Shown here piece after piece: positions 835 to 17,377 of a stretch of 28,490 nt of DNA. How positions within the stretch are numbered: position 1 is the first letter of the stretch; the number at the start of each line of letters is the position of its first letter. A program made the translations under genes and the position numbers. The stretch lies in the NCBI GenBank assembly GCA_043805855.1, contig JAZDHP010000059.1:1-28490 (forward strand). Direction: 5' to 3'. The notes beneath the pieces are model-generated. The model did no database searches and was not told the DNA's origin. It worked only from the letters and a program-made list of their open reading frames with translations. The DNA comes from Candidatus Micrarchaeota archaeon (lineage in GTDB: Archaea; Micrarchaeota; Micrarchaeia; Norongarragalinales; UBA8480).

Positions 835-1578
835 TCAAGAAAACTTCTTCGCTTTTTTCTTCATTAGTTCAAAGTAACGCACGTAGCTTTGCGCGAATTG
901 CTTGTTTTGAATTTGAATTGAAAACACCGGTTGCAAGTAATTATTGAAAACCACTTTATCCCCGTAAATCCAAGTGCCTACTGGCGTGAAGAAACTCTCT
1001 GGAAGCAAGTAAGTTTCAGTTAAAGGTAACGGCGCTAAGTCAGCTGCGCGTTTTCTACCCGCTTCATTGTCAACCAACAGCGCAACGAGTTTAATTCCCT
1101 TTGCAACGCGCATACGTTGAAACTTACTGCCGAACACATTACCAATAATTTCGCGAGCGTGGCCAGAGGAAATAAGCGAGTACCACGTTCCGCCCTCGGG
1201 GATTGAGTCAACAATATCCATTAAAACCGAACGAAGCCCAGCTTGACCTTCAAAAGTAGTGCTATTAACTGCTTGCGGTTGGCTTGAAAAACACGATTCA
1301 AGAAAAGAAAGCTTCTCGTCAAAATCTTCCTGCACTTTTTCAGCACGGCTACGTAGAACAGAAGGAGAAACTGGACTGTAAAGCATGTGCTTACCTAGTT
1401 TGAAACGAGTTGCTAGCCCTTTTTGCACTAGCCGCTCCGCAATGTCATAAGCGTTAGTACGGTGAACGCCGGATAAATTGCTTAAACGCGACGCCGTTGT
1501 CTTACCTGACTTTACTAGCACTTCGTAAACGCGCGCTTCGTTTTCAGTTAAACCAGCGACACTCAAAGGCGAATTCAT
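835..1578 (-). CDS. TrmB-family transcriptional regulator (cassette 1)
   Basis: GLTENEARVYEVL...SGVHRTNAYDIAERLVQKGL wHTH; C-terminal TWIYGDKV...FAQSYVRYFE effector domain. Confidence 0.9.
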   Translation of the reverse strand: MNSPLSVAGLTENEARVYEVLVKSGKTTASRLSNLSGVHRTNAYDIAERLVQKGLATRFKLGKHMLYSPVSPSVLRSRAEKVQEDFDEKLSFLESCFSSQPQAVNSTTFEGQAGLRSVLMDIVDSIPEGGTWYSLISSGHAREIIGNVFGSKFQRMRVAKGIKLVALLVDNEAGRKRAADLAPLPLTETYLLPESFFTPVGTWIYGDKVVFNNYLQPVFSIQIQNKQFAQSYVRYFELMKKKAKKFS

Positions 1579-1600
1579 AAAGAGTTCAGAAAACTCACTA

Positions 1601-1643
1601 AATAAAAAGGTTGTCGTAGCAACTGTACAACAAATCTATAACC
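1601..1643. promoter_or_regulatory. divergent promoter with putative TrmB operator GTCGTA-N7-TACAAC (1613-1631)
   Basis: TTTTTATT on the - strand (1601-1608) ~25 nt before the TrmB start; weak TCTATAACC on the + strand ~25-30 nt before the binding-protein ATG; imperfect palindrome between them. Confidence 0.55.
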
Positions 1644-1667
1644 GCGTGAAAAGAGACTAGCTATAGC

Positions 1668-2648
1668 ATGAACAAACAACATGCTTTGCAAATATTAGCA
1701 ATAGTTATTATCATCGCTGTTGGAATTTGGTTTACAAACGCACAACTCACTGGCCACGCCGTTGCGCAGGAAGAAAAAATAAAAATTGGCGTTGTTGAAC
1801 ACGCTGCTGGTTTACCTTATTTTATCGCGATTGAAAACAAATACTTTGAAGCAGAAGGCTTGCGCCCCGAATACATTTATTTCAGCACAACTAAACCCCT
1901 AGCAGATGCACTTGCAGCTGGGCAAATTGACGCAGGGCTCATTACATATTCTCTGTTGCTTGGTGCAGAAGCGCGGGCGCCGGGAGAGTTTAAAACCGCG
2001 CTAATGGTAGGCGAAGATACACAACACGGCGTTTTACCGCTCTTAGTTCCGGTGAATTCTTCTATCACTTCAATTTCACAACTCAAGGGAAAGAAAATTG
2101 GCCTAGCCGCAGCGGGAATGACGCCAATAGCAAAGATTATTTTTGGTAAATTCTTTAATAAAAACGAAATTGAGTTAATTGACATTGATTCTAAAATACA
2201 AACTGAAGTACTCGCAGCTGGAAGAGTAGACGCCCTGTTCGCAACTGAACCGCAAGCTACAACTGCAGTGCAAAAAGGTATTGGCCGCGTGCTTGAACGC
2301 AGCCCAAGAGCAAAATACGTTTTAGATCCGTTTCCAGCCGGCGCAGCAGTTGTTTTCAAAGCTAAATATACTGAACAACATCCAGTTGAAACTCAAAAAA
2401 TTATAGCCGCACTTGAACGAGCGGTTGACTACCTACGTGCGAATGAAACCAACGCAAGGGCAATAATGGCAAAGCAACTCAATTTACCTGCAGGCGTTGC
2501 GGAAAACGTTCCGTTATACCAATTTTACAAGCAAAGCGAGATTACTCCTACAGTAAAGCAAAGCGTGCAACAGCTAGCAGACATAATGCAAGAAAGCAAA
2601 CAACTAGACAAAAAAGTAGAAACAAGCGCACTGTTTTACAACGGCTAA
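1668..2648 (+). CDS. ABC-type substrate-binding protein, NMT1/SsuA/TauA family (cassette 1)
   Basis: N-terminal TM anchor; IKIG...LPYFIAIENKYFEAEGL; ALAAGQIDA; SITSISQLKGKKIG; AGRVDA...EP. Confidence 0.9.
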   Translation: MNKQHALQILAIVIIIAVGIWFTNAQLTGHAVAQEEKIKIGVVEHAAGLPYFIAIENKYFEAEGLRPEYIYFSTTKPLADALAAGQIDAGLITYSLLLGAEARAPGEFKTALMVGEDTQHGVLPLLVPVNSSITSISQLKGKKIGLAAAGMTPIAKIIFGKFFNKNEIELIDIDSKIQTEVLAAGRVDALFATEPQATTAVQKGIGRVLERSPRAKYVLDPFPAGAAVVFKAKYTEQHPVETQKIIAALERAVDYLRANETNARAIMAKQLNLPAGVAENVPLYQFYKQSEITPTVKQSVQQLADIMQESKQLDKKVETSALFYNG

Positions 2649-2650
2649 CG

Positions 2651-3400
2651 CTAAGGTTTCGCAATTTTCCAAAACGCGTCGAAGTAGGCTTGGAAACTTT
2701 TCACTGCTTCTTTGCTTTCCAAGAGGAAACCCTTGGGGTCTTGAGTCCAGAGGATTATGAAAACTTTGTTTTTGAAAAAAACTATTTGCATGTTCGTAAC
2801 TAGATACTGGGGCAAGAATCTAATCTCTGAATGCAAAGAAGTGGTTTCAACTATATTTTCCTTCATGTTGAAGTTTGCCAACATTTTGAGTTTAATCTTT
2901 TTAGCAGCGCGTCGACGGTGATGGCCATAGAAAAATTCACGCAAGTGAGGCACCTCTCCATAGCCAGCGCCGATTACATAGTAAGTTTCTCCTGGTTTCA
3001 ACTCGTCAAGCGCATTGCGGAAAAAGTTAGTAACTGCTTTGAAACCGTCAAAAATAGTAGCTTCGCTTACATCACCCGCTAACTTTTGACTAGCTTCAAG
3101 TTCCGGCAACATATTTTCAACTAGCAGCCGCTTTTCTTGCAATTGCTTCTCACGCTCGTCAATATAATCAATAACCCTACGGGGCGCCATACCTGAATAA
3201 AATTTTACCCCACTTTTCAACACGTGACCAGCTAACCCTTTTTTCTCCAAACGGCCAAGAATCTTGTAAACCTTTGACGAAGAAACGCCCGCCTTAAGTG
3301 CGAGTAGTCCGGTTTTAGTCGAGCCTAATTTAAGCAACGCAAGATAAACCTTAACTTCTCCCTGCGTAAGTCCAATTTCCTCGAGTAACTTCAAATCCAT
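2651..3400 (-). CDS. TrmB-family transcriptional regulator (cassette 2)
   Basis: LEEIGLTQGEVKVYLALLKLG...VYKILGRLEKKGL; C-terminal SFQAYFDAFWKIAK. Confidence 0.9.
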   Translation of the reverse strand: MDLKLLEEIGLTQGEVKVYLALLKLGSTKTGLLALKAGVSSSKVYKILGRLEKKGLAGHVLKSGVKFYSGMAPRRVIDYIDEREKQLQEKRLLVENMLPELEASQKLAGDVSEATIFDGFKAVTNFFRNALDELKPGETYYVIGAGYGEVPHLREFFYGHHRRRAAKKIKLKMLANFNMKENIVETTSLHSEIRFLPQYLVTNMQIVFFKNKVFIILWTQDPKGFLLESKEAVKSFQAYFDAFWKIAKP

Positions 3401-3423
3401 GACTAAATTACCGCGATACTGAA

Positions 3424-3474
3424 CTTAAAGGTTTCTACTGCGACCCCCCGAGGGGAATATAACTCTTAACCGCG
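3424..3474. promoter_or_regulatory. divergent promoter with putative operator CCCC-CGA-GGGG (3445-3455)
   Basis: CCTTTAAG on the - strand (3424-3431) ~25 nt before the TrmB start; GC-rich palindrome in an AT-rich spacer; weak TCTTAACC on the + strand. Confidence 0.5.
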
Positions 3475-3509
3475 GTTTTGGAACAATCATTTACTGTGGT
3501 GTTTGGAAG

Positions 3510-4514
3510 ATGAATTCAAAAATATTGCTTACAATAGGAATAATTGCAGTTATCGCGCTTGGCGCGTTTTACATAAGCGGAAGCCTAACTGGATTCGCAA
3601 CTGCTAATAAAATGGAAAAAGTGAAAATTGCCGATATACCGATCACGCAGAATATCCCGCTTTATTTAGCTCTTGAAAATGGATACTTTGAACAAGAAGG
3701 AATTGATGTTGAAGTTGTTAGGTTTGACTCTCCAAAGCAGATCGTTGATGCAGTTGTACTTAATCAAGTTGACTTAGCCGGACCAGGCGGAGCAACAGGC
3801 ATAAGTGCAATTGCAGAAACTCTAAGTCCAGGTTCATTAAAGTACTATGCATTTACGTGCCACTACGGAAATAGCGGAAATAGTTTACTCATTAAAAAAA
3901 ATTCAACTATGACTTCTATAAAAGAACTTGAAGGAAAAAATATAGGCAAATTGCCAGGAATCCAATGGACTACTATTGTAAAAAGAATTTTGAAAAACAA
4001 TGGCGTTGACGCTGAAAAAACTCAATTAGTTGATTTGGCAGTTCAAGTGCAGTTACAAGCGCTTGAAAGCGGGCAAATAGACGCGCTAGTTGGACTAGAC
4101 CCCATTGTACAAATTGGAGTTGAAAAAGGAATTGCAAAAATACTTATTCCTGGCTTAACAGAAAAATATTTTGTCAACCCGTCGTGTAACGGCGCTGGTT
4201 TTGTGTCAATTAAATTTATGCAAGATCGGTCTGAAACAGCTGAAAAAGTGTTAAAAGTAATGCAAAGAGCAATTAACGAGTCAAATGACCCTAGAAGTTG
4301 GCCTGAACAAAGAAAACTGCTTGAAAAATATTTAAAAGTTGAAAGACAAATAACTGAAAAAATGCCTTTTCCAATGGCAACATTCGTCTATGCTAGTGAA
4401 CTAAACAAAGAACAAAGCCAAGCAATAGAGCAATTCTGGAAAATTTTCTACGAAGATGGAATTATCAAAAAGCAAGTAAAGTTGGAAGATGTACTACTTA
4501 GCAACGTTAGCTAG
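3510..4514 (+). CDS. ABC-type substrate-binding protein, NMT1/SsuA/TauA family (cassette 2)
   Basis: TM anchor; PLYLALENGYFEQEGIDVE; SIKELEGKNIG; ALESGQIDA. Confidence 0.9.
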   Translation: MNSKILLTIGIIAVIALGAFYISGSLTGFATANKMEKVKIADIPITQNIPLYLALENGYFEQEGIDVEVVRFDSPKQIVDAVVLNQVDLAGPGGATGISAIAETLSPGSLKYYAFTCHYGNSGNSLLIKKNSTMTSIKELEGKNIGKLPGIQWTTIVKRILKNNGVDAEKTQLVDLAVQVQLQALESGQIDALVGLDPIVQIGVEKGIAKILIPGLTEKYFVNPSCNGAGFVSIKFMQDRSETAEKVLKVMQRAINESNDPRSWPEQRKLLEKYLKVERQITEKMPFPMATFVYASELNKEQSQAIEQFWKIFYEDGIIKKQVKLEDVLLSNVS

Positions 4515-5221
4515 ATTTTGGCAATTTTCCACATTGCTTCAAAGTAACTCTTGTAGGATTTGGCAACGTTTTTGTCACTAATCACAACTGCCAACGGAGG
4601 CTGAGTCCACGTTACAATTGCGACGTTGTTCCCAAAAACCCAAGTTGAAGATGGAGAAAAGAACTCTGAAGGTAGAAACTTGAACTTGCCGTAAATTGAC
4701 TTGATTGGCGTAGCAGTTCGATTGTCAAGTGAGAGCAACGTACGAGATTTAACGCCAGCTTTGCGTTTCTTGCGTTGAAAGGCAAAGTAATCATGTTGCA
4801 TAACTTCCCAAAACTCTCCAGACGCGCCAAAACTAACATATTCAGGCATAGTTAAAATCTGCGACAACATACTGTTAATTCCTTTTTTACTCCGATAAAT
4901 TTTCACCGTAGGCGCTTCTATCTTTGAACATAGAGTTTCAAGTTCTGGAATCAACTCACTTGCTATTTCCTTCTTCTCTTCAACCCATTCAAGTAAACGC
5001 GAAGGTGCAACTGCACAATAAACACGGCGCTCGCCTTCAGAAGAAATACTCACAAGTCCTTTTTGAATCAAACGCTCCAACGCATCGTAAGTAGTTGTAC
5101 GGTTAACGCCAGTTTTATGAGAAATTACGCCCGCGCGGCTGCCGCCTAGTTCTAGCAAAGCGACATAAGTGCGCGCTTCAATTGGAGTTAAACCCAATGC
5201 AGCTAAACGCGAGGTATCCAT
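4511..5221 (-). CDS. TrmB-family transcriptional regulator (cassette 3); start revised to MDTSRL at 5221
   Basis: LGLTPIEARTYVALLELG...TGVNRTTTYDALERLIQKGLV; SYKSYFEAMWKIAK; TATA ATTTAAGT ~25-30 nt upstream of 5221. Confidence 0.9.
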   Translation of the reverse strand: MDTSRLAALGLTPIEARTYVALLELGGSRAGVISHKTGVNRTTTYDALERLIQKGLVSISSEGERRVYCAVAPSRLLEWVEEKKEIASELIPELETLCSKIEAPTVKIYRSKKGINSMLSQILTMPEYVSFGASGEFWEVMQHDYFAFQRKKRKAGVKSRTLLSLDNRTATPIKSIYGKFKFLPSEFFSPSSTWVFGNNVAIVTWTQPPLAVVISDKNVAKSYKSYFEAMWKIAKI

Positions 5222-5244
5222 GAAAAAGATGAGAAAATACAAGT

Positions 5245-5292
5245 ACTTAAATTTATCTATGTGTTGTCAAGAAGCTCACAACAATTAATTAA
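5245..5292. promoter_or_regulatory. divergent promoter with putative operator TGTTGT-N10-ACAACA (5262-5283)
   Basis: perfect 6-bp inverted repeat between a - strand TATA (5245-5252) and + strand TTAATTAA. Confidence 0.55.
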
Positions 5293-5328
5293 TACTGAAA
5301 CCACTTCGAAACAATTCAGGTGGGAAAA

Positions 5329-6303
5329 GTGGACAAGAAAATAGCTTACAGTATTGTACTAATCCTAGCAATAGTTGGAATAGCTGCTTTGTTGTTTCCG
5401 CTTCACGGGATGACAGGCAAAGTAACCGCAACGCAGGCGCAAAAAGAAATAAACGTAGCTTATCTTCCAATTGCAAGCGATTTAAACTTTTTTGTAGCTA
5501 TGGACCAAGGTTTTTTTGAAAAATATGGTTTGAAGGTAAACGCAATTGAATTTGCCAAGTCTCCAGATGCTATTAACGCACTTGTAAGCGGAAATGTAGA
5601 CGCCGCTGCGCTAGTAGGCATAGAGTCAATTTACGCTGCGCAAGCTAGGAGTCCAAACGCGTTTAAGCTAGTGCAAGTTTCAATTGCGAACGAAAATACT
5701 TTAGTTCACAAAATCCTCGTAATGCCAAACGCTTCAATTACCAAGGTTTCTCAGCTGGAAGGTAAAAAAGTGGGAATTTTTCCTGGCGGAAATTTAAAAA
5801 CATTAACAAAAGTAGCTTTGAAAGATCAGCTTAATACAGAAAAGATTAATTTTGTTGAACTGGAACCAAATTTGCAAGTAATCGCGCTGTCAGTTGGGCA
5901 AATAGATGCACTAGTTAGTTTGGAACCAGTTGGTACAATCGCGCAAGAAAAGCTAGGCACGAGAGTAATTGAGTCAAACTTCCTCGCGAAGTACATAATG
6001 AACCCAATACCAACAGCCGGGAGTTTAATTTCAAAACAATATGCTCAAAATAACCCTACAAACGCACAGGCGTACAGCGCTGCATTGGAAAACGCTGCGC
6101 TGTTTATAAAAAATAACCCAGGTGAAGCAAAGAAAAGTTTAGTAACTTGGCTGCACGCTGAAGAAAAAATAGCTGAAAAAAGTGGAATTTATGAATATGT
6201 TGCGCCTGAAAAAGTAACAAGTGAACTTTCAACGCTGGCAGAGATACTCTACGCTAATCGAGTTGTAAAAAATAAAATAAACGTAACTGCACTCGTTGGT
6301 TAA
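5329..6303 (+). CDS. ABC-type substrate-binding protein, NMT1/SsuA/TauA family (cassette 3)
   Basis: GTG start after SD AGGTGG; TM anchor; FFVAMDQGFFEKYGL; ALVSGNVDA; SQLEGKKVG; GQIDALVSLEP. Confidence 0.9.
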   Translation: MDKKIAYSIVLILAIVGIAALLFPLHGMTGKVTATQAQKEINVAYLPIASDLNFFVAMDQGFFEKYGLKVNAIEFAKSPDAINALVSGNVDAAALVGIESIYAAQARSPNAFKLVQVSIANENTLVHKILVMPNASITKVSQLEGKKVGIFPGGNLKTLTKVALKDQLNTEKINFVELEPNLQVIALSVGQIDALVSLEPVGTIAQEKLGTRVIESNFLAKYIMNPIPTAGSLISKQYAQNNPTNAQAYSAALENAALFIKNNPGEAKKSLVTWLHAEEKIAEKSGIYEYVAPEKVTSELSTLAEILYANRVVKNKINVTALVG

Positions 6304-7358
6304 ATTTTCTTCACCATGCCGGTTTCGCTGTTTACTTCGACTTCGTCTCCGGTTTTGAACACTTTCGTTGCAACTTTCGTGCCGATTACGCATGGGAGTT
6401 TCAGCTCGCGTGCAACAATCGCCGCATGGCAAGTCATTCCCCCTTCGTTAGTTACAATCGCCGCGGCTCTTTTCATAACTTGAACAAAGTCAGGCGTAGT
6501 CATCGGAGTTACCATTATTTCTCCAGCGCGGAAATCACGTAGCTGTTCAACTGCAAAAATAACCCTAACTTTACCGCGTACAATGCCAGCGTTACAGGCA
6601 ACTACGCCTTTGACGACGTCTTTTGAAACAACCACATCTTCTTCGTAAAAGTAATTATTCTCTTTGAAAACTTTCTTGTAATCCCGAGTAGAGTAAACTT
6701 TGTCGTTGCAGTAAACGAAACCACCAGTACGGCAGTTAACTTCACTCCAGTTAATCTCTTTTCCCGCCGCCAGAGAATTTATTTCATCCGAAGTGACAAA
6801 ACGTTCTAGCTTTTCACTTTTACCAATTTTCTTCAAGTGCTTTTTCACAACCGTGCGCAGCGCTGCGTCAACAGCTTCAAAAGTACCTTCGGCGAACAAA
6901 CGATCTTTAAACGCGGCTTTGATCGACGCATCTGCATCTTTTCCAGCAGCTATACGTACATCAGCTTCCCAAAGCGTTGGAAGCAAGAGAGTAAACCGGT
7001 AAAATGGATATAAACCTTTGAAGTAGAACCGTAACTTTTGCAAGTTTGCGGTTGTCAATTCGCCTTTTACGAATTTTTCTATAAACAAACGTGTTGCTGA
7101 AATGTTTTTGATAAACGTTTCTCGTTTTTCCAAGTAGTAACGCGGGTTGCGCTTGAAAGCAGAGACAACCGCTTGTTTAATTGCAGTCATGTCGCTCTCG
7201 AGGAAAAAGAACTCAACGCACAAACCGTTTCCAACTGCAATTGTATCTCTATAGGAAACGCCGAGCTCGCGCTTGAAATCGTTAAATTGAGTTTCGCGCC
7301 ACCACTGGGAAGTAGCAAGGCAAAAGTCGCGAGTGAAAGTTTTTAGAACTTTTTCCAT
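6300..7358 (-). CDS. PEP-utilising enzyme mobile (phospho-His swivel) domain protein with unknown N-terminal helical region
   Basis: C-terminal GKVRVI...GEIMVTPMTTPDF...AAAIVTNEGGMTCHAAIVARELKLPCVIGT; too short for an ATP-grasp or PEP-binding barrel. Confidence 0.85.
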   Translation of the reverse strand: MEKVLKTFTRDFCLATSQWWRETQFNDFKRELGVSYRDTIAVGNGLCVEFFFLESDMTAIKQAVVSAFKRNPRYYLEKRETFIKNISATRLFIEKFVKGELTTANLQKLRFYFKGLYPFYRFTLLLPTLWEADVRIAAGKDADASIKAAFKDRLFAEGTFEAVDAALRTVVKKHLKKIGKSEKLERFVTSDEINSLAAGKEINWSEVNCRTGGFVYCNDKVYSTRDYKKVFKENNYFYEEDVVVSKDVVKGVVACNAGIVRGKVRVIFAVEQLRDFRAGEIMVTPMTTPDFVQVMKRAAAIVTNEGGMTCHAAIVARELKLPCVIGTKVATKVFKTGDEVEVNSETGMVKKI

Positions 7359-7359
7359 T

Positions 7360-8793
7360 CTATACGCGCCTCACTACGCCCTTATCCGCGTCAACTTCAA
7401 CTTTATCCCCATCTTTTAGCACTTTTGTTCCAACTTTTGTACCGGTTATGCAAGGAATGTGCAACTCTCTACTTACGATTGCGGCATGGCAGGTTAATCC
7501 GCCAGTGTCTGTAATAATCGCAGCTGCTTTTTTGATAACCGGAAGCAACGCAGGGTTAGTAGAAACGCTTACTAGGATATCGCCTTGATTCATCTTACTG
7601 AAGTCACCAGCTGAATTGACAATTTTCACAATGCCAATAACTTTACCTGCAACTGCAGTTGCACCGCGCAATTCCTTAACGTTTTTGTCAAGCTTCTGGC
7701 GAACAATACCCTCACGGAATTTCACTGCTTCAACGCCGGATAAAATTTGCAACCCGCTTTCTTCAATTATACAAACACAAGAGTTACGCCGCTCCTGCAG
7801 TAACTTCAACGCCAGCGGCTTACCGTTAATTGCATTTTTCATCTCTTCCAGTGTTTGAAAGCGAAATAGTTCAAGCGGAACACCAGTACGACGCGACGCT
7901 TCCTTTAGCCATTGTTCAAAGTAGAAAATACTCTTAATTTGAATTTCCTTGCGATAAGGTTTAAGCCACGAAATTTTACGCGCAACGTAAAACATCTCGC
8001 GCATTTCAGGCGAAACTAGCTTTTCAAGTTCAATTTGCTTCTTTTTTATCTCCGTAATTTTGCGCTGTTTTTCTTTGAGCTTAGCAACCGCGTCGAAACT
8101 AGTGTCTTTTTTCATCGACGCAAGTAGCTCCACATAATACGACAAGCCCCATTTTGTTGGCCCGCGCCAAGCCCACGGAATCCAAATGAATTTTTCGCTA
8201 TGCTTAACAAGCGCAGCTTGCTGTTTTGCTTCTGGAAGTATGCAAACCTGAAGAAAACTTTCTTCTTCCTGCGCGCCGTACGTTTTGTCAACAGTGTTTA
8301 CAGTTAGTATTGAAAACATTTCTTCACTGCGTTGCGGGAAATTTTTCTTTAAGTAACCTTGCAAAAAGTGAGTGAGCAACATATCTGGCTCAAAATCTAG
8401 CGCCGGAAGAAGTAACCCCCATGCAAACGATGGGTAAACTTTTTCAATGTAAGTGTCAAGAATTTCGCACATTTCCGCGTTGCTTTTTTCCTTTAAGTTC
8501 ATCTTCGAAACTTCAATTGCATAATCAGCAGCAGCGTTTGCAAGCGGAACAACATTACGTTCAATTTCTTCAACGTATTGTGGATTTTGCTTTACTTTTT
8601 CAAAAACCAAGCAACCACCTTTCATCCAACCATCATCAAGGCAAAATTGAAATTCACTATCGTGGAAATCCAACGCCCAGCTGACGCTAAACCCAACTAC
8701 TTTCTTCCAGCCAAACGCAGTGCCTAGCGGCGGAAAACACGATGCAAATGGTGCGCCATTAAAGTCAGTTTCCAAGTCATAAAATGTTTTCAT
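7360..8793 (-). CDS. PEP-utilising enzyme mobile domain protein (resembles the C-terminal half of rifampin phosphotransferase/PEP synthase-like proteins)
   Basis: C-terminal GDILVSVSTNP...AAAIITDTGGLTCHAAIVSRELHIPCITGT; long helical N-terminal region; no recognisable ATP-grasp. Confidence 0.85.
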   Translation of the reverse strand: MKTFYDLETDFNGAPFASCFPPLGTAFGWKKVVGFSVSWALDFHDSEFQFCLDDGWMKGGCLVFEKVKQNPQYVEEIERNVVPLANAAADYAIEVSKMNLKEKSNAEMCEILDTYIEKVYPSFAWGLLLPALDFEPDMLLTHFLQGYLKKNFPQRSEEMFSILTVNTVDKTYGAQEEESFLQVCILPEAKQQAALVKHSEKFIWIPWAWRGPTKWGLSYYVELLASMKKDTSFDAVAKLKEKQRKITEIKKKQIELEKLVSPEMREMFYVARKISWLKPYRKEIQIKSIFYFEQWLKEASRRTGVPLELFRFQTLEEMKNAINGKPLALKLLQERRNSCVCIIEESGLQILSGVEAVKFREGIVRQKLDKNVKELRGATAVAGKVIGIVKIVNSAGDFSKMNQGDILVSVSTNPALLPVIKKAAAIITDTGGLTCHAAIVSRELHIPCITGTKVGTKVLKDGDKVEVDADKGVVRRV

Positions 8794-8865: not shown

Positions 8866-9504
8866 TTAACCTTGCGCTAGGGAAGTAATAATGGCACTTT
8901 CTGCGCGTTGTAATCTTTCCCGCAGCGTCGAATACGGTATTCGCGCATTTTTCGCAATTTCCTCTAATGTTTTCTTGCGGGGAATTACATAGTAACCGTT
9001 TTGAAACGCGAGCATCACTGCGCCACGTTGTTTGTCTGACAACTTTTCCAACACGGGTTCAGCTGCAAATGCAAGGTGCTTTACTTTCTTAAGATAAATT
9101 ATTTCCGCGCCGCCTTTGAAACGCTTTACTGCATTGTAAACTTTTTGAATTGCTTTTTTGTCATTACTAGCAACTTCCCAATACTGACAACCGTCTTTGA
9201 AAAGAATCGGCTGCGTTAGGAAAACTTCGCTAGATAAAACAATCGAATGAAACGCTTTTGACTCTGGAATTCTGAAGAAACATTTATTCTCATCAACCTC
9301 GAGCAACTCGCCGGTGAAATCCTTCGCAACGTTGCGAACTGCTTTTTTCCAATCTGGCCCACTGAACACTGCGATTTTATTGTGATAGTATTTGTTCCCC
9401 TTCTTGAAGAAATTAAGGTAATAGACAACGGCGCTTACGTCGAGCCCTTTGGTGAACTGAGCTAGTATGCTATCGTGCCAAACCTTAAAACGAGCAATCC
9501 ACAT
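8866..9504 (-). CDS. HTH_10 (bacterio-opsin activator-like) transcriptional regulator; start revised to MWIARFK at 9504
   Basis: C-terminal LSDKQRGAVMLAFQNGYYVIPRKKTLEEIA...STLRERLQRAE is a canonical HTH_10. Confidence 0.88.
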   Translation of the reverse strand: MWIARFKVWHDSILAQFTKGLDVSAVVYYLNFFKKGNKYYHNKIAVFSGPDWKKAVRNVAKDFTGELLEVDENKCFFRIPESKAFHSIVLSSEVFLTQPILFKDGCQYWEVASNDKKAIQKVYNAVKRFKGGAEIIYLKKVKHLAFAAEPVLEKLSDKQRGAVMLAFQNGYYVIPRKKTLEEIAKNARIPYSTLRERLQRAESAIITSLAQG

Positions 9505-9584
9505 TTTGTTTAAAACATTAAACACGGATGGTTTTTAACTTTTCACTACGTTAAAATAAAAAAGAAAACAAGGGTTTTTTATAA

Positions 9585-9865: not shown

Positions 9866-10219
9866 CTAAACTGTTTTCCAGCCATCGATTCCAGAAATTA
9901 GTAAGTATTTTTTCAAATCTACTGCTTGTTCGGAGAATTGCCAATAAGTTCTTCGCCCAACTTCTTCCTTAGCTAGGATACCTTCGACTTCCAACTTGTT
10001 GAAAAACGTACTCACTGACAAATACGTTCCACCCGTGCGGTTTTCTTTTAAATCGCGCAAGAGATTTGAAATCGTCGTGCGCTCTAACTTCGCTAGATTT
10101 TCCAACGCTTTTAATCTCAATTTACTTGGATCGTTACGCGCAAGAACAATAAACCAATTTTGTAAATTGCGTTTTAGTCCAGCTGCGCGGCCGAAAATTT
10201 CAGAATAGGCAAGGAACAT
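9866..10219 (-). CDS. small winged-helix (ArsR/MarR-like) DNA-binding protein
   Basis: TTISNLL...SVSTFFNKLEVEGILAKEEVGRRTYWQFS wHTH pattern; 1-nt TAATG overlap with the upstream gene. Confidence 0.65.
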   Translation of the reverse strand: MFLAYSEIFGRAAGLKRNLQNWFIVLARNDPSKLRLKALENLAKLERTTISNLLRDLKENRTGGTYLSVSTFFNKLEVEGILAKEEVGRRTYWQFSEQAVDLKKYLLISGIDGWKTV

Positions 10220-10635
10220 TACTTTAATTCAACTCCAAAATATTTAGTTTCAAGCGGAATAGTTTCTCCTTTAAACTCAGAGACAAGCAAGTGAACTAAA
10301 CGCATACGGCTTTTCAGGGAAATTTCTCTATCCGAAAGATTGTATATTCCAAAATAAACTTTGCCAAGGTAAGTTGGATCAATCTTACCGCAATTTATCC
10401 CGACTCCGATGCGAATAGCAAAACTCGTTGGTACTAAAACCGCCATTAAACTAGCGGGCATTTTTAAAGATTCAAATGTTGTTCCCAGCACATATTTCCC
10501 CGGCTTTAGTACATAAGGCAGTTTAACGTTACGCGAAGATGGGACTTCTCCTTTGCCATCGAGCTCTGAAACACTTTCCAAGCGCAATTCATAGGAAACA
10601 GGTTTGAAACAAGAAACGTCAAAATCTTTAATCAT
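10219..10635 (-). CDS. dCTP deaminase/trimeric dUTPase superfamily protein with degenerate motifs; start revised to MIKDF at 10635
   Basis: PVSYELRL, LKPGKYVLGTTFESLKMP, IDPTYLG, RLVHL; TATA TTTTTAAA ~25 nt upstream of 10635. Confidence 0.75.
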   Translation of the reverse strand: MIKDFDVSCFKPVSYELRLESVSELDGKGEVPSSRNVKLPYVLKPGKYVLGTTFESLKMPASLMAVLVPTSFAIRIGVGINCGKIDPTYLGKVYFGIYNLSDREISLKSRMRLVHLLVSEFKGETIPLETKYFGVELK

Positions 10636-10686
10636 GTTACTTATAGGTAACGCCGCTTTAAAAAAAGTTACCTTGTTGTTACTAAC

Positions 10687-12129
10687 ATGGTAAACAGCTT
10701 GCAATTTAGAGCCGTACTTTTTGTGGAGCAGTTAGTTTACGGAAAAAGTGATAAGGGAATTGGAATTGTAGCACTGTGGACAAGAAAGGAACTAGTTGCA
10801 AATCAAGTTACAGAGGTAAATTATACAGTAATTGGCCAGCTTTACTCGCGCCACCAAGGAATAAATGCTTTGATTATAAACTGCCTAGCGAACAAAACAC
10901 TGCGTTACTTAATCGTAACTGGATTGGACTTAAGTAAGTCAGGCGAAACGCTGGCAAAGTTATTTCAAACTGGCGTCAACGAAAATAGAATGGTCAACGG
11001 CGATAACAATTTTATCCTAGACCCAAATATTCCTCTTGCAGAGCTAGAATCATTTCGACAAAACGTTGAATTAATTGACCTGCGAGGCACGGCTAAGCTA
11101 GAAGAGTTAAACGCAGTAATTGAAAAACTCGAGAAAAAAGCGCCTTATGGCGAAAACCAACGCTTTGAGTTAAGCGCACCGCCAGCACCGGAAGTTTTTC
11201 CTTCTCAATTAACAGGGTTACAAGTAGTTGCGTCGAATATTCCAAAAGCGTGGCCGCAAATTCTTGACAAGATAATGACGTTCGGCGCGTTGAAAAAAAG
11301 CGAGTACGAAGAACCGCAAAAAGAGTTGCTATGCTTTACTTCCATCATCACTGACGACGAACAATTGCCAGAAAACGGAAAAGGCAGCTGGAACCGGTTT
11401 TTCCCATTTACACGAGAAGACGTTGCTGCCTACGTGCCACAAGTTGCAACTGGATTGAAAATCGACGGCGTCGAATACACTTACGGTCAACGACTGCGTA
11501 GTCCAATTGAACAAATCGCGTACATAACTGAAAAAATTAAAACCACCCCGCATAGCCGACGGCACGTAGCGTGCACGTGGAACACTGAACACGATTACAA
11601 TAATCCCAATGCACCTTGCTTGGTTTTGCTTCAGTTCAACGTAACTGACAGCAAACTTCACACAACAGCGTTTATTCGCAGTAATGACATGTACGCCGCG
11701 TGGCCGAAAAACGCGTTTGCACTGCGCGAGTTACAGCGCGCAGTAGCAACGGATACAAAGTTACAAATGGGATTTCTTTCAATTGTATCGCAAAGTGCAC
11801 ACATTTACCAGCACGATTTCGCCAAGGCAAAAGAAGTTATCGCAGCTAGGCCAAAAATTGAATGGCAACCAGATCCAAATGGAAATTTAGTTATAACGAC
11901 GCGCGATAGCGAAATAGTTGTAATTCACTTGGCCCAGGGTTCAAAAGTGTTGGAAGAGTTTCGCGGCAAAACTGCAGTTGAGCTTTACAAACACATTGCG
12001 TTTCGGAATAAAATTTCGGTAATCTCTCATGCGCTTGATATTGGCTGTGAATTGCAAAAAGCAGAAACCGCGTTAAAGCTAGGAGTACAATACACGCAGG
12101 ACAAACCACTGCCGCTTGAAAACCAATAG
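10687..12129 (+). CDS. thyA: thymidylate synthase with N-terminal MtrA-like domain and C-terminal DUF4346
   Basis: YTYGQRL, SRR, APCL (catalytic Cys), RSND...N, SAHIY; N-terminal LANKTLRYLIVTG; C-terminal HALDIGCELQKAETAL...YTQD. Confidence 0.85.
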   Translation: MVNSLQFRAVLFVEQLVYGKSDKGIGIVALWTRKELVANQVTEVNYTVIGQLYSRHQGINALIINCLANKTLRYLIVTGLDLSKSGETLAKLFQTGVNENRMVNGDNNFILDPNIPLAELESFRQNVELIDLRGTAKLEELNAVIEKLEKKAPYGENQRFELSAPPAPEVFPSQLTGLQVVASNIPKAWPQILDKIMTFGALKKSEYEEPQKELLCFTSIITDDEQLPENGKGSWNRFFPFTREDVAAYVPQVATGLKIDGVEYTYGQRLRSPIEQIAYITEKIKTTPHSRRHVACTWNTEHDYNNPNAPCLVLLQFNVTDSKLHTTAFIRSNDMYAAWPKNAFALRELQRAVATDTKLQMGFLSIVSQSAHIYQHDFAKAKEVIAARPKIEWQPDPNGNLVITTRDSEIVVIHLAQGSKVLEEFRGKTAVELYKHIAFRNKISVISHALDIGCELQKAETALKLGVQYTQDKPLPLENQ

Positions 12130-12189: not shown

Positions 12190-12456
12190 ATGTACGAACA
12201 AATGACAATTATGGGAGAACGTGGACAGATAACTATTCCAAAGGCTATTCGCGAAATGGAAGGTTTGAAGCCAGGAAATCAAATTGTAGTAAAAATAGAA
12301 AATAGCAAAATCATAGTTGAAAAACCACTGAACAAAAAAGAAAAGGAAAAATTAATGGCTGAAGGATACAAAAAAATGGCTAAGCTAGATGAAGAAACTG
12401 CTGAGGAATGGAAAAACGCCAGCAAAGAAGCGGATGCGATGCTTGATGATTATTGA
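12190..12456 (+). CDS. mazE: AbrB/MazE-family antitoxin
   Basis: MGERGQITIPKAIREMEGLKPG AbrB motif; acidic C-terminus; overlaps the toxin; upstream TATTTA-N7-TAAATA inverted repeat (12141-12159). Confidence 0.85.
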   Translation: MYEQMTIMGERGQITIPKAIREMEGLKPGNQIVVKIENSKIIVEKPLNKKEKEKLMAEGYKKMAKLDEETAEEWKNASKEADAMLDDY

Positions 12457-12790
12457 ACGAGGCGACGTAGTTTTAACCGACTTAGAGCCAGTAAAAGGTT
12501 CAGAGCAAGGTAAAATGAGGCCATGCCTAGTTATACAAAACAATATAGGCAACGCAAATTCGTCAACTACAATTGTAGCTTCAATCACTTCGCACACCGA
12601 AAAACAATATCCTTTTACAGTTTTAGTAAACGCAGGAGAAGGCAACTTGCCAAAAGATAGTTTAGTCCAATGCAACCAAATTAGAACAATTTCAAAAGAA
12701 CACAGAATATTACAAAAGCTAGGCTCCCTTTCGCCAGAAACGATGAAAAAGGTAAACGAAGCACTAAAAACAAGCTTCGCTTTGGACTAA
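12446..12790 (+). CDS. mazF: MazF/PemK endoribonuclease toxin; start revised to MIIERGD at 12446
   Basis: RGDVVLTDLEPVKGSEQGKMRPCLVIQNN...TIVASITS...QIRTISK. Confidence 0.93.
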   Translation: MIIERGDVVLTDLEPVKGSEQGKMRPCLVIQNNIGNANSSTTIVASITSHTEKQYPFTVLVNAGEGNLPKDSLVQCNQIRTISKEHRILQKLGSLSPETMKKVNEALKTSFALD

Positions 12791-12802: not shown

Positions 12803-15676
12803 TTAGCCTTTAATGACGCCAATTGGCACTAACCTACAAACGACGTTGGAAATCTTTGCAGTTTTCACTGTGTTGATCACTTCGTCGATGTCCTTGTACG
12901 CTCCGCCAGCTTCTTCTGCCAAACTCTTCGGTGTTGGCGCTTTGACTTGAATTCCTGAACTTTCCATGTCCTTTTGCAACTGTACGCCGTCGAAATCGCG
13001 AAGTGCCTGGTGGCGCGACATTATACGACCAGCGCCGTGGCAAGTTGAACCAAACGTATTTCTACCGCTCGGAATGCCGACAAGTAAGTAAGAAGCTGTT
13101 GACATGCTGCCTGGAATTATAACTGGTTGGCCGATGTTGCGGTAAGCTGCTGGAATTTCTTTTCTACCTGCCCAAAACGCGCGAGTTGCACCTTTACGGT
13201 GAACGCACACTTTCTTGTTAACCCCGTTAACCTCGTGTTCTTCAATCTTTGCAATATTATGGCACACGTCGTAAACGGTTTTCATTCCCATTGTTTCCCA
13301 ATCTTTATTGAAAACTTGTTGGAATGTCTCGCGAACCCACTGGCCCATGCAATGACGATTTCCAAAGGCGAAGTTCACTGCGCAGTTCATTGCGCCGAAG
13401 TAATCCTGCGCTTCTGGACTTTTAATCGGAGCACAGCACAGTTCATAGTCAGGAAGATTAATTCCATACTTCTTCGCAGCAGGTAGCATAACGCGAATAC
13501 TATCTTCACACACTTGGTGACCAAAACCGCGAGAACCACTGTGAATCATAACTGTAACTTGGCCTTCTTGCGTTATCCCAAACGCTTTTGCTGCTTCGAC
13601 GTCGTAAATCTTGTCAACTTTTTGAATTTCAGAAAAGTGATTTCCACTCCCAAGCGTGCCGAATTGAGGTTTGCCGCGCTTAATTGCCATTGGAGATAAT
13701 TTAGAATACAACGCGCCGTCTTTCTGGCCGTTTTCCTCACAGTGCTCTAAATCTCCCTCAACGCCGATGTCCTTCTCTTCGACGAAGTAACGGCTGCCTT
13801 GAGTAACCGCTTGTTCGAACTCCACATCGTTTAAACGCATTTTACTCTTGCTACCAACCCCACTTGGAATGTTGTCGTACATTTTCAAAATAAGTTCCTT
13901 CAATTTAGGGCGAACTTCTTTTTCAGTAAGGTCGGTACGCAACAAACGTACACCACAATTTGACACAACGATTCCATTTGCGACAAAGTTATGCAAATCA
14001 GCAACGGTAAAATCATATACGATTCCACTATAATCAATTTGTTTTATCTCTGAAATTTCATCAAGCAACGCGCCGAATTGTTCAAATTCTTTTTTGCATT
14101 GCACTGAAAAATCTTTAAACGAAATAAAATCAAGAGTTATTCGTTGCCCTACTTTTTCATAATAACTTCGCTCAATGAATCGAGTATTTGCTTCTGGACA
14201 AACAAGCACTGAACTAACTTCACGAAGAGTTAACCCTTTTGTTTTTAGTTCATTTACTTTAGCTGCAATTTGGGTTCTTTTCTGGGTTAGTTTCTGTTTT
14301 GAAAGTATATACTTAGCTGCTATTTCGCCTAACTGCTGGCGTTTTGTATTATACTCAAATCCAACTACTCGCCATAATTTAAGCAAATTATCTTCATCAG
14401 CAGATATTTCAAGACGCAAACGCATTGTTTTGCCTTGTTTATTTTCATGCTCCATACGCTCTGCAATTTTTGTACATTTCACGCCAAAATCTTCTAAAAG
14501 TGCCATTATGTCTATTAGAAACGTCCTCCCAGCTTCTTTAAATTCAACGTTTTTATTCTGCGACAATATAGGTGAATAAAAGCCAGTTTTTGAATGAGTT
14601 GCCGGACTTGAAAGCTCCGCTCCAAAGAAACCAGCAAGAAATAAACGCTTTAACCATAATGGGGAATCTTTAATCCATTGAGGAACACTAAAAGCTAAGC
14701 TTGTTTTTCGGCCAACTGGCGCGCCGAGAGAAATTAATTCATTAGCAAAAGATTGCGAATAAACGTGCAACTCCGCACATTGACCTACGAAACTCTTTTT
14801 GCCATATTGACTTTCAATAGTGTGATAGCGTTTTCGTTCAACAATATGCGAATGCACACCTAAACTAACTAAATCACGCTGCATTACTTCTAAATCTCCC
14901 TTGGCGCCATAAAAAGCCGTTCTCAACTTTCCTTTTGAATTAGAAATAGAGCCATCTCCAAACAAATAACCTAATACTTTTGCTAAAACGCCTTGCCTTT
15001 GAAAATCTTTAATTGGCTCAAAACCAACACCTTGAAACATCAACATGGCAATTTTATCCGTTGCAATTAATTCGCCAGCTTTAACCATACCGCGGTTTGT
15101 TAAAATTGGATGATCTTCACTACATAAAAGATTCAAACCACTTGCAGTTGTTACTGAAAGCATACGTTTGTCTGCTTGCTTTTTCATAAAAGCTAAAACC
15201 GACTTGGAAGCAAACTTGTGAGAATTAATATCAAGAGAAGAAACTTCAACATCAGAGCTAGCAGCACTAAAGGAATATTCTTTAATCAAGTTAAAATTCT
15301 TGAAAAACATTTCAAAACTTTCAATGGGCAAGTAAAAACCAAGTGAGTGTCTAACATTTGACCCTGCAGCGAGGCAATTTATATCGTATCCAACTCCGCC
15401 TGGAGAAACTACACCAGTGTCAAGGTCAAACGCAGCAACTCCACCAATTGGAAACCCGTAACCTTCATGACCATCAGGCATAACCATAGCAGCTTCGAGA
15501 ATTCCAGGAAGCGAAGCAACGTTCCTCGCTTGTTTAATCGTGCGGTCGCGTCTCATTTTGTCAATAAGCAAATCAGAAGCAAAGATACGCACCGGCACGT
15601 TCATTGCGCCTTCGCGGGGTAACTCCCAAACTGCGTCGCTGACCTTTTTTAAATTGTAAATTTCCTGAGGATCCAT
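12803..15676 (-). CDS. rtcB: RtcB RNA 3'-phosphate/5'-OH ligase (tRNA-splicing ligase) containing an intein
   Basis: MPDGHEGYGFPIGGV, GGVGYDIN/CGVR, GTLGSGNHF, HSGSRG, HRKGAT, HGAGR, EEA..AYK; SD GGTGA before the ATG at 15676. Confidence 0.96.
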   Translation of the reverse strand: MDPQEIYNLKKVSDAVWELPREGAMNVPVRIFASDLLIDKMRRDRTIKQARNVASLPGILEAAMVMPDGHEGYGFPIGGVAAFDLDTGVVSPGGVGYDINCLAAGSNVRHSLGFYLPIESFEMFFKNFNLIKEYSFSAASSDVEVSSLDINSHKFASKSVLAFMKKQADKRMLSVTTASGLNLLCSEDHPILTNRGMVKAGELIATDKIAMLMFQGVGFEPIKDFQRQGVLAKVLGYLFGDGSISNSKGKLRTAFYGAKGDLEVMQRDLVSLGVHSHIVERKRYHTIESQYGKKSFVGQCAELHVYSQSFANELISLGAPVGRKTSLAFSVPQWIKDSPLWLKRLFLAGFFGAELSSPATHSKTGFYSPILSQNKNVEFKEAGRTFLIDIMALLEDFGVKCTKIAERMEHENKQGKTMRLRLEISADEDNLLKLWRVVGFEYNTKRQQLGEIAAKYILSKQKLTQKRTQIAAKVNELKTKGLTLREVSSVLVCPEANTRFIERSYYEKVGQRITLDFISFKDFSVQCKKEFEQFGALLDEISEIKQIDYSGIVYDFTVADLHNFVANGIVVSNCGVRLLRTDLTEKEVRPKLKELILKMYDNIPSGVGSKSKMRLNDVEFEQAVTQGSRYFVEEKDIGVEGDLEHCEENGQKDGALYSKLSPMAIKRGKPQFGTLGSGNHFSEIQKVDKIYDVEAAKAFGITQEGQVTVMIHSGSRGFGHQVCEDSIRVMLPAAKKYGINLPDYELCCAPIKSPEAQDYFGAMNCAVNFAFGNRHCMGQWVRETFQQVFNKDWETMGMKTVYDVCHNIAKIEEHEVNGVNKKVCVHRKGATRAFWAGRKEIPAAYRNIGQPVIIPGSMSTASYLLVGIPSGRNTFGSTCHGAGRIMSRHQALRDFDGVQLQKDMESSGIQVKAPTPKSLAEEAGGAYKDIDEVINTVKTAKISNVVCRLVPIGVIKG
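13958..15376 (-). mobile_element. intein (473 aa) with LAGLIDADG homing endonuclease, inserted before the catalytic Cys of RtcB
   Basis: starts CLAAGS; block B SEDHPIL; LGYLFGDGS and LAGFFGAEL motifs; ends VYDFTVADLHNFVANGIVVSN followed by Cys+1. Confidence 0.95.
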
Positions 15677-15825
15677 AGTAAACAATCACCTAAACTTAAC
15701 GTAAATAGCAATAAAATTAAGCTGAAACGCGAATAAAAGCCCTTTGTAACAGAATACTTCACAGCTTCCAAAAGCTTTAGAATCCCAATTAGCTTATTTA
15801 TATAAGTGAGAATATGTTTGGCAGC

Positions 15826-16972: not shown

Positions 16973-17377
16973 ATGGCGCAAGTTTCAAATGAAGAGTTAA
17001 TTAAGAGAGCAAGGGCAGTTGCGAAGAAGCGCGTGATTGTAAACAAAGCTACTGCGATTAAAACCGGCGAAGTCGGCGCGGCGCTTGTAACTGACAAGGG
17101 AAACGTTTACGTCGGCGTTAGTATTGGCGCTGACTGCGGGACGGGATTTTGCGCTGAGTCAAGCGCAATCGCAGCAATGGCAACAGCCGGAGAACACAAG
17201 ATAAAAAAAATCGTTGCGGTTTCAGACACTGGAATTGTAATCCCCCCATGCGGCAGGTGTAGAGAAATAATTTACGAAATTAACAACAGCGCAGACGTTG
17301 ACGTCGTGCTTGGGAAAAACAAGGTTGTAAAGCTAAAGAAACTGCTACCGGAAATTTGGCAAGAGAAGTTTTACTAA
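16973..17377 (+). CDS. cdd: cytidine deaminase (homotetrameric, Cys-type zinc ligands)
   Basis: VGAAL..GNVYVG, FCAE, PPCGRCRE. Confidence 0.85.
   Translation: MAQVSNEELIKRARAVAKKRVIVNKATAIKTGEVGAALVTDKGNVYVGVSIGADCGTGFCAESSAIAAMATAGEHKIKKIVAVSDTGIVIPPCGRCREIIYEINNSADVDVVLGKNKVVKLKKLLPEIWQEKFY

Follow-up and report, generated by a model that had tools for sequence, protein, structure and literature searches.

Six divergent pairs of TrmB-family regulator and NMT1/SsuA-type binding protein genes, and one candidate translocator for them, in a 1 Mb Micrarchaeota genome

In a 28,490-nucleotide contig of a Candidatus Micrarchaeota archaeon (contig C59, here called the window), three genes for substrate-binding proteins (SBPs) of the NMT1/SsuA type each stand head to head with a gene for a TrmB-family regulator. 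This arrangement raises the question of what these receptors deliver their ligands to, and whether each regulator acts on the receptor gene next to it. A first-pass annotation of the window had described a triplicated unit, in which a TrmB gene on the minus strand is separated by a spacer of ~90-110 bp from an SBP gene on the plus strand. We found the open reading frames (ORFs) placed as claimed, with spacers of 89-109 bp, and Pfam confirmed both families. The window is part of an assembly of 1,031,631 bases in 67 contigs, which is 92% complete and 1.2% contaminated. Six ORFs between positions 835 and 6303 form the three pairs, which we call units 1 to 3:

835-1578, minus strand: TrmB-family regulator 1, 247 amino acids (aa); PF01978, expect value (E) 7e-17; short TrmBL2-like form.
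1579-1667: bidirectional spacer 1, 89 bp; candidate operator GTTGT-N12-ACAAC at 1610-1631.
1668-2648, plus strand: NMT1/SsuA-type SBP1, 326 aa; NMT1_2 E 1e-18, NMT1 E 7e-12; N-terminal hydrophobic segment.
2651-3400, minus strand: TrmB-family regulator 2, 249 aa; PF01978 E 2e-13.
3401-3509: bidirectional spacer 2, 109 bp; AACCGCGGTT at 3468-3477; without the GTTGT..ACAAC element.
3510-4514, plus strand: NMT1/SsuA-type SBP2, 334 aa; NMT1 E 9e-21.
4511-5218, minus strand: TrmB-family regulator 3, 235 aa from ATG 5218; PF01978 E 4e-18.
5219-5319: bidirectional spacer 3, 101 bp; candidate operator TGTTGT-N10-ACAACA at 5262-5283, between two AT-rich boxes.
5320-6303, plus strand: NMT1/SsuA-type SBP3, 327 aa; NMT1 E 7e-19.

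Adjacent units lie tail to tail, with a 2 bp gap or a 4 bp overlap, and residual short DNA repeats recur at distances of 1801-1860 bp, the period of the unit (~1.84 kb). For regulator 3, the ORF list also contained a TTG start at 5242, which would shorten spacer 3 to 77 bp; ATG 5218 is the likelier start because the N-terminus then resembles those of the paralogues. All six proteins score above the Pfam gathering cut-offs. The regulators reach 50-66 bits with PF01978 (cut-off 25.6), and the SBPs reach 46-75 bits with NMT1 (PF09084, cut-off 20.5) and 57-68 bits with NMT1_2 (PF13379, cut-off 24.7).

No gene for an ATP-binding cassette (ABC) ATPase or permease was found in the window, either with Pfam on its 32 ORFs, in genome-wide searches or in a six-frame search with hidden Markov models (HMMs). 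This agrees with the earlier claim that none lies in these 28 kb. A translocator concealed in an assembly gap beside each window unit was also considered; it was excluded, as the units are contiguous, tail to tail, in one 28 kb contig.

In the 1.03 Mb genome as a whole, we identified six NMT1 matches: three in the window, two on contig C33 (units 4 and 5) and one on contig C8 (unit 6). A divergent TrmB partner lies beside all of them (6/6), and this pairing is not due to chance. The paralogues are strongly diverged, as the first-pass annotation had stated, with 20-29% identity among the six SBPs and 22-35% among the six TrmBs. On C33, unit 5 is directly followed by the gene of a 238-aa, TauB-like ABC ATPase, whose best NCBIfam matches are of the SaoA, PhnT2, TauB, NrtCD and SsuB types, all under the equivalog cut-offs. 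The contig stops 106 bp past this gene. Its last 108 nucleotides are the first 36 codons of a TauC-like permease, which overlap the stop codon of the ATPase gene. Over residues 7-36, this fragment and the N-terminus of the cassette permease of a same-genus genome, G003, are identical at 16/30 positions (E 2e-8 in a single comparison).

The C33 gene encodes the sole importer-type ABC ATPase that was found in the genome. Two other ABC ATPases are present, a MacB/FtsX-type protein on contig C9 and one on contig C35 that is probably SufC, judged from its neighbouring genes. Neither Pfam (PF00528) nor a six-frame search with an HMM built from the relatives' permeases revealed a second permease of the NitT/TauT type in the genome. 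In this 92% complete genome, six SBPs thus stand against a single matching ATPase and a permease truncated by the contig end, and five of the six units have no adjoining translocator.

We favour the reading, which we hold to be moderately probable, that six receptor-plus-regulator modules feed one NitT/TauT-type translocator and that each regulator acts on its own bidirectional spacer. Each unit would consist of an extracytoplasmic SBP of the NMT1/SsuA superfamily and its own short, divergently encoded TrmB-family DNA-binding protein. The regulator would bind an element in the common spacer and control both genes. The orphan SBPs would hand their ligands to the single TauB/TauC-like pair behind unit 5, giving six receptors of differing specificity and one pump.

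Sharing of this kind has precedents: HisJ and ArgT share the HisQMP translocator. Likewise, MppA is an extra SBP that uses the OppBCDF translocator, according to the portion of PMC3173086 that deals with it. In these orphan-SBP systems, as here, the SBP genes outnumber the translocators, and the surplus SBPs are of the same family as the translocator, with genes that lie apart from it. The present case differs in having six SBPs of 20-29% identity, with private divergent regulators, in a 1 Mb archaeal genome, and in that sharing is deduced from gene counts and synteny.

The distribution of these genes among relatives bears on how the array came about. An NMT1 match was found in 6/30 relatives. 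In a sample of 250 other genomes from across the phylum, 12 matched the SBP profile, once or twice each, compared with six matches in this genome. Because so few phylum genomes have this SBP type, and none of the 12 more than two matches, its expansion would point to a need for some class of small molecules that is particular to this lineage. We annotated 18 fetched loci with Pfam and with HMMs built from this dataset. After one weak partial match (G174:C1, 93 profile positions, no ORF) was dropped, 18 SBP genes at 17 loci remained. An ATPase and/or permease gene adjoins the SBP gene in 13/18 cases (L001, L002, L003 with a permease only, L005 for both of its SBPs, L007, L027-L032 and L034). 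The fetched stretch is without a transporter gene in 5/18 (L004, L006, L033, L035, where the contig is just 2.9 kb, and L036). A divergent TrmB-like gene accompanies 8/18 (L003, L004, both SBPs of L005, L007, L027, L029 and L030), and L001 is cut by the contig end 31 bp upstream of its SBP gene. The complete form, in which a TrmB gene faces the genes for SBP, ATPase and permease (or SBP, permease and ATPase), occurs at four loci: L007, L027, L029 and L030.

Since 13 of the 18 SBP genes of relatives lie beside an ATPase and/or permease gene, the complete cassette is the usual state, and the orphan state is probably derived and nearly confined to this genus. The first-pass annotation had held that its reading would suffer if homologous cassettes normally carried their own permease and ATPase, or if the pairing of TrmB and SBP were not conserved. 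The former is true in part, namely for these 13 genes, and the pairing is kept in orthologues. The array would most likely have originated from complete cassettes of the kind seen in relatives, with redundant translocator genes lost in a reduced genome.

The same-genus genome G003 shows an informative arrangement. There, SBP_a (minus strand) faces TrmB_a (plus strand), and the genes for a permease, an ATPase and TrmB_b follow on the minus strand, the last of them facing SBP_b (plus strand). SBP_a and TrmB_a are orthologues of window unit 1 (49% identity for each protein), and SBP_b and TrmB_b are orthologues of unit 4 on C33 (42-43% and 56% identity, respectively). The C33 and G003 ATPases are 72% identical and are sisters with 100% support in the Shimodaira-Hasegawa-like approximate likelihood ratio test (SH-aLRT). 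The G003 translocator genes are co-oriented with the regulator gene TrmB_b, not with the SBP gene. Because this translocator lies behind unit 5, near unit 4, in our genome and beside the G003 counterparts of units 1 and 4 in the congener, one orthologous translocator is tied to different SBPs in the two genomes. The proposal of a shared translocator encoded elsewhere, made in the first-pass annotation, is borne out as to the genes: an ATPase and the start of a permease exist on C33, and their orthologue lies between two units in G003. That the orphan SBPs dock to it is what we infer from gene counts and synteny.

The ratio of SBP to permease genes is 6:1 here, the permease being partial, 2:1 in G003, 2:2 in G010 and 1:1 in G004; G001 (71% complete) has one SBP and no permease. 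In the SBP tree, window SBP2 groups with the SBPs of G004, G138 and G010. Next to the SBP gene, an ATPase and a permease gene are present in G138 and G010, and a permease gene only at the G004 locus. This grouping fits the loss of redundant translocator genes in our lineage. At the G004 locus (L003:3158-5617, G004:C35), a 98-aa ORF without a Pfam match separates the SBP gene from the permease gene, and no ATPase was found. The divergent "TrmB" of this locus is matched by the custom HMM, not by Pfam at 1e-4, and has a very long branch; L003 may be a decaying cassette. Among the neighbouring genes of the relatives, a nucleotide-metabolism theme was considered (PurA, MazG-like, amidohydrolase, cytidine deaminase and PurP-like genes, with a transketolase gene by two loci); it was weak and inconsistent, and we did not use it.

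Alternatively, the SBPs could act without any transporter. They might be receptors on the cell surface, serve as sensors or sequester compounds, of which host-derived metabolites are one example, and TrmB would then set their level only. The five own units that lack an adjoining translocator would fit this, as would the G001 orthologue of unit 3, which likewise has none. In a distant member of the phylum (L035:1-2709, G226:C113), an SBP gene is followed by a same-strand gene for a dCache-HAMP-HisKA histidine kinase. This pair is possibly an SBP-coupled sensor, which would mean that such sensing occurs in the family. However, no kinase, chemoreceptor or other signalling partner was found next to any of the six own units. 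In addition, the genome encodes a translocator of the matching family whose orthologue lies between two such units in G003, and most SBP genes of relatives (13/18) stand beside transporter genes. We therefore consider a transporter-free role unlikely, and the sensing or sequestering function that the first-pass annotation offered as its second option is without support here.

Relatives with complete cassettes also invite the view that the window units are their non-functional, decaying remnants. The system is missing from one congener (G002), and toxin-antitoxin genes that flank the array suggest a variable region. Yet all six ORFs are intact with full-length domain matches, and the models of SBP3 and regulator 3 are confident (predicted local distance difference test, pLDDT, 93). 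The orthologues, at 49-69% identity, retain the ORFs, the pairing and the spacer elements. Decay is in our judgement very improbable, and we return to functional modules that serve one translocator.

To characterize the receptors, we compared their sequences and fold with known binding proteins. The AlphaFold2 (AF2) model of SBP3, built from a 36-row alignment, has a pLDDT of 93.4 and displays a two-lobed SBP fold with an N-terminal helix at residues 6-24. The top Foldseek match was SsuA (2x26; E 1e-20, TM-score 0.72-0.80), and further matches were TauA (6ssy), a Bordetella protein, PqqT, a thiamin SBP (4nmy), Thi5 and ThiY, at 16-20% identity. The profile of the SBP family matched 4nmy best (E 6e-27). 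As modelled for SBP3, the window SBPs share the two-lobed fold with SsuA/TauA, ThiY/thiamin (3ix1, 4nmy) and PqqT proteins (Foldseek E 1e-20 to 4e-14), but they are just 16-20% identical to them and fall under the cut-offs of the specific families. With SsuA_fam (TIGR01728) they reach 100-126 bits (126 for SBP1; cut-off 163.5). With the TauA equivalog (TIGR01729), SBP2 and SBP3 reach 31-43 bits against a cut-off of 304, and SBP1 has no match. The sulfonate contacts of TauA are Gln30, Gly61, Gly79 and Thr132, as given in the part of PMC6906117 on this protein. In a single-sequence PDB search with SBP3, TauA was not among the matches, and the alignment with SsuA begins at residue 71. The ESM Atlas returned generic NMT1 clusters only. 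SaoX/SaoA/SaoP, for which there is a preprint by Haft (10.1101/2022.07.06.499078), was tried as a family assignment and rejected, with NCBIfam scores far under the cut-off.

We then asked which ligands the genome could use. In the 92% complete genome there were no matches to TauD (PF02668) or to a luciferase-like, SsuD-type monooxygenase (PF00296), and none to ThiD (PF08543), ThiE (PF02581) or TPK (PF04263); control genomes did match. Because the matching enzymes were not found, a role in the use of sulfonates as a sulfur source and in the salvage of thiamine or hydroxymethylpyrimidine (HMP) is unlikely, within the limit set by 92% completeness. The low mutual identity of the paralogues suggests that they may bind different ligands. 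Our guess is that these are small polar or heteroaromatic metabolites.

Each window SBP begins with a hydrophobic stretch of ~20 residues. In five of the six own SBPs, a (L/M/A)-T-G-(H/F/K/Y) motif lies behind the hydrophobic segment, and in four of them an A/V-x-A-like site comes next (window positions 1668-1790, 3510-3630 and 5320-5450, and the C33 paralogues). The hydrophobic segment may be kept as an anchor, or the site behind it may serve for signal-peptidase cleavage or another kind of processing. No lipobox cysteine was found in the N-termini of the own SBPs; the relative at L030 has one.

The second half of the question concerns the regulators. TrmB is described as the founding regulator of archaeal binding-protein-dependent ABC operons, which binds promoter palindromes, in the part of a review that covers it (PMC4158304). 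The array resembles the trehalose/maltose and maltodextrin operons of Thermococcales, as portrayed there, in that a TrmB-family winged helix-turn-helix (wHTH) protein goes with a binding-protein-dependent ABC importer and with palindrome-like promoter elements. In contrast to the sugar-sensing TrmB and TrmBL1 (~338-341 aa), the window regulators are 235-249 aa long, TrmBL2-like and without the C-terminal sugar-binding subdomain. The importer is of the NitT/TauT rather than the CUT1 sugar type, and the regulator gene is divergent from the SBP gene instead of lying inside the operon. The NCBIfam models for TrmB and TrmBL1 give 20-44 bits, compared with cut-offs of 600-650.

The regulator profile aligned with TrmBL2 from end to end, but with TrmB (3qph) it went no further than residue 150. 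In its AF2 model (pLDDT 92.7), regulator 3 consists of a wHTH, a long helix and one alpha/beta PLD-like domain, after which the protein ends. Foldseek placed TrmBL2 first (E 4e-13), then TrmB, and then the PLD-family nucleases Nuc, Zucchini and PLD3, which match the C-terminal domain. The HxK(x)4D motif was present in 0/14 regulators examined. The recognition helix contains a Tyr that is invariant in regulator alignment A2 (Y44 of unit 1) and conserved at >=90%, that is at least 90%, in alignment A4; it would be equivalent to Y50 of P. furiosus TrmB by way of a table in the review (PMC4158304).

The same part of the review places six of TrmB's seven contacts with the sugar in the second C-terminal subdomain, and states that TrmBL2 is without the C-terminal 70 residues that hold the sugar-binding domain (PMC4158304). 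Since the regulators described here do not have this subdomain, the general premise that TrmB proteins sense ligands fails to carry over to them. The one-sensor-one-receptor array that the first-pass annotation had proposed is thus retained in one respect only: there is one regulator per receptor, in 6/6 cases here and for 8/18 SBP genes of relatives, and the TrmBL2-like architecture gives no support to the sensing.

TrmBL2 itself (PDB 5bpd, 5box) is the best match in both sequence and fold, and shares with the window regulators the length and the order of wHTH, long helix and one PLD-like domain. The differences are an identity of ~21%, scores far under the cut-off of the NCBIfam TrmBL2 equivalog (NF041141; units 1 and 3 ~23 bits against 530, unit 2 no match), and the presence here of several diverged copies, each paired with one SBP gene. 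Because multiple diverged copies are each tied to one SBP gene, local rather than global action is suggested.

To look for targets of such action, we analyzed the spacers. Each has AT-rich boxes toward both genes and an element between them, which is upstream of both boxes. The motif TGTTGT-N8-12-ACAACA has just two genomic sites, C59:5262 in unit 3 and C8:39618 in unit 6, whereas 0.35 are expected from shuffles, and both sites (N9/10) fall in spacers between TrmB and SBP genes. The form with 5-mer arms in unit 1, GTTGT-N12-ACAAC, has 23 sites genome-wide, 3 of them in such spacers, versus 6 expected. The central block of spacer 1, AAAGGTTG..GTAGC.AC..TACAAC, is common to unit 1 and its G003 orthologue (G003a), and the flanks have diverged. 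In the spacers of unit 3 and its G001 orthologue, alignment columns 23-77 are near-identical. No operator was assigned in spacer 2, because its palindrome is reached by 354 of 500 shuffles. The recognition helices and the spacers compare as follows:

Unit 1 and G003a: helix HRTNAYD, identical in both; GTTGT..ACAAC in unit 1, and a related block with one half-site changed in G003a.
Unit 3 and G001: helix NRTTTYD; GTTGT..ACAAC.
Unit 6: helix NRTLVYN; GTTGT..ACAAC.
Unit 2: helix SSSKVYK; other spacer type.
Unit 4: helix YRAAVYD; other spacer type.
Unit 5: helix HPRSTYD; other spacer type.

An RT at the start of the recognition helix coincides with a GTTGT..ACAAC spacer in 3/3 own units, and the remaining three have neither. 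Both the spacer elements and the recognition helices are kept between orthologues and differ between most paralogues. This is the pattern that private operators would produce, and cross-talk among units 1, 3 and 6 is possible. The weight of the argument lies on the genome-wide rarity of the 6-mer motif and on conservation in orthologues, not on palindromes in single spacers. From these features, binding of the regulators at the spacer elements is predicted, which may activate or repress the genes; the first-pass annotation had assumed induction.

The likeness to TrmBL2 allows for another explanation, in which the regulators belong to the TrmBL2 type and serve as general DNA binders, chromatin proteins or global repressors, and their place beside the SBP genes is inherited synteny. 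The alignment over the full length of TrmBL2, its first rank in Foldseek, the missing sugar-binding subdomain and the window palindromes, which are not significant singly, all agree with it. However, the pairing is complete in this genome (6/6) and recurs in other families of the phylum, and the TrmBL2 equivalog score (~23 bits, against 530) is very low. Moreover, the recognition helices differ among paralogues and are identical in orthologues, together with conserved spacer blocks. We regard general DNA binding as quite unlikely, and retain the reading of regulators that each act on their own spacer.

Regulators and receptors were also compared in their phylogeny. The trees of SBPs and TrmBs have four tip pairs in common: unit 1 with G003a, unit 3 with G001, unit 4 with G003b, and G016 with G168. 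In the SBP tree each of these pairs carries a star, as do three of them in the TrmB tree, where G016-G168 has 84% SH-aLRT. For 3/6 own units, the nearest relative is identical for both proteins. Regulator 3 and its G001 orthologue are 69% identical, and SBP3 orthologues are 55-56% identical. A Mantel test on 13 pairs, from which the "TrmB" of L003 was left out, gave r 0.68 and p 1e-4, a correlation that is driven by these orthologues, and kin are not independent. These comparisons indicate that the units are passed on as units between close genomes. Co-divergence of TrmB and SBP, which the first-pass annotation had put forward as a test, is seen at these orthologue tips, not among the six paralogues.

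Several observations weigh against six private modules that serve one pump. For the six own paralogues alone, SBP and TrmB distances correlate with r 0.19 only (p 0.34). Since these distances are uncorrelated at 20-35% identity, duplication of whole units in deep history is not established. The regulators resemble TrmBL2, which has no effector domain and acts as a chromatin protein and global repressor, according to the part of the review on it (PMC4158304). In the three window spacers, the best inverted repeats do not exceed those of shuffled sequences, as 275, 354 and 203 of 500 shuffles reach them. On the side of the translocator, the permease is visible as a 36-codon fragment only, and in a 92% complete assembly of 67 contigs further translocators could be unassembled. 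Finally, G002, of the same genus and 91% complete, has neither an SBP nor a permease, so the SBP system is dispensable.

The PLD-like domain raises a further point. The short-TrmB family comprises 19,982 cluster representatives at E <=1e-3 and 1,881 at <=1e-30. Many relatives (P0019-P0168) have one wHTH and 2 to 7 tandem PLD-like domains of ~130 aa, of which Pfam names the wHTH only. The tandem copies each end in an F..LWNQ-like motif, and the proteins are ~380, 515, 650, 790 and 1061 aa long. For this uncharacterised PLD-like domain, which the large family carries, a role as a sensor is possible. We can imagine six matched pairs of outside and inside sensors, in which an SBP captures a metabolite and the PLD-like domain of its partner senses the same one inside the cell, a speculation that we would not expect to hold. 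If it were true, a DPANN cell with one pump would run six independent, insulated nutrient circuits, and a large class of small-molecule sensors, so far undescribed, would lie hidden in the short TrmB family with its ~20,000 representatives.

The array is not a new kind of system, as both orphan SBPs and importers under TrmB control had been described before. What is new is that a short, TrmBL2-like regulator is paired 1:1 and divergently with an NMT1-type SBP, and that this occurs six-fold against one translocator in a phylum that is mostly without the system. In a literature search, with limited coverage of subscription journals, no publication was found that links TrmB-family regulators to NMT1/SsuA-type SBPs. 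A symbiont-type archaeon of 1 Mb may in this way extend the range of its nutrients at low cost: one translocator is kept, and only the receptor and its private regulator are multiplied (12 genes). The six natural SBP/regulator pairs, with their candidate operators, are on offer for ligand screens.

The surroundings of the array contain several other genes. Toxin-antitoxin-like pairs flank it at 284-825 and 12190-12790 (both plus strand), a DUF4258 gene with a zinc-ribbon/MazE-like gene and a MazE with a PemK/MazF gene, and a further such pair lies between the two C33 units (G000:C33:2454-3124, minus strand). Their presence at the arrays hints at variable genome regions. Directly after unit 3, two tandem genes on the minus strand (6300-7358 and 7360-8793) encode proteins of 352 and 477 aa, in which Pfam names a C-terminal PEP-utilizers mobile (phosphohistidine swivel) domain only. 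Their N-terminal parts are unnamed, and neither an ATP-grasp nor a PEP/pyruvate-binding domain was found in them. Among NCBIfam models they come nearest to "PRK08296 hypothetical protein" and to the tails of PEP synthase and rifampin phosphotransferase. A gene for an HTH_10 regulator (8866-9525, minus strand) comes after the tandem genes.

Farther downstream, a gene at 10687-12129 (plus strand) encodes a 480-aa protein in which an MtrA-like domain, thymidylate synthase and the pterin-binding DUF4346 are fused. A dCTP-deaminase-like gene (10219-10704, minus strand) overlaps it with its start, and a cytidine/dCMP deaminase gene is located at 16973-17377. We also found a gene for a 960-aa RtcB tRNA ligase at 12803-15685 (minus strand), which is split by an intein with a LAGLIDADG-like domain.

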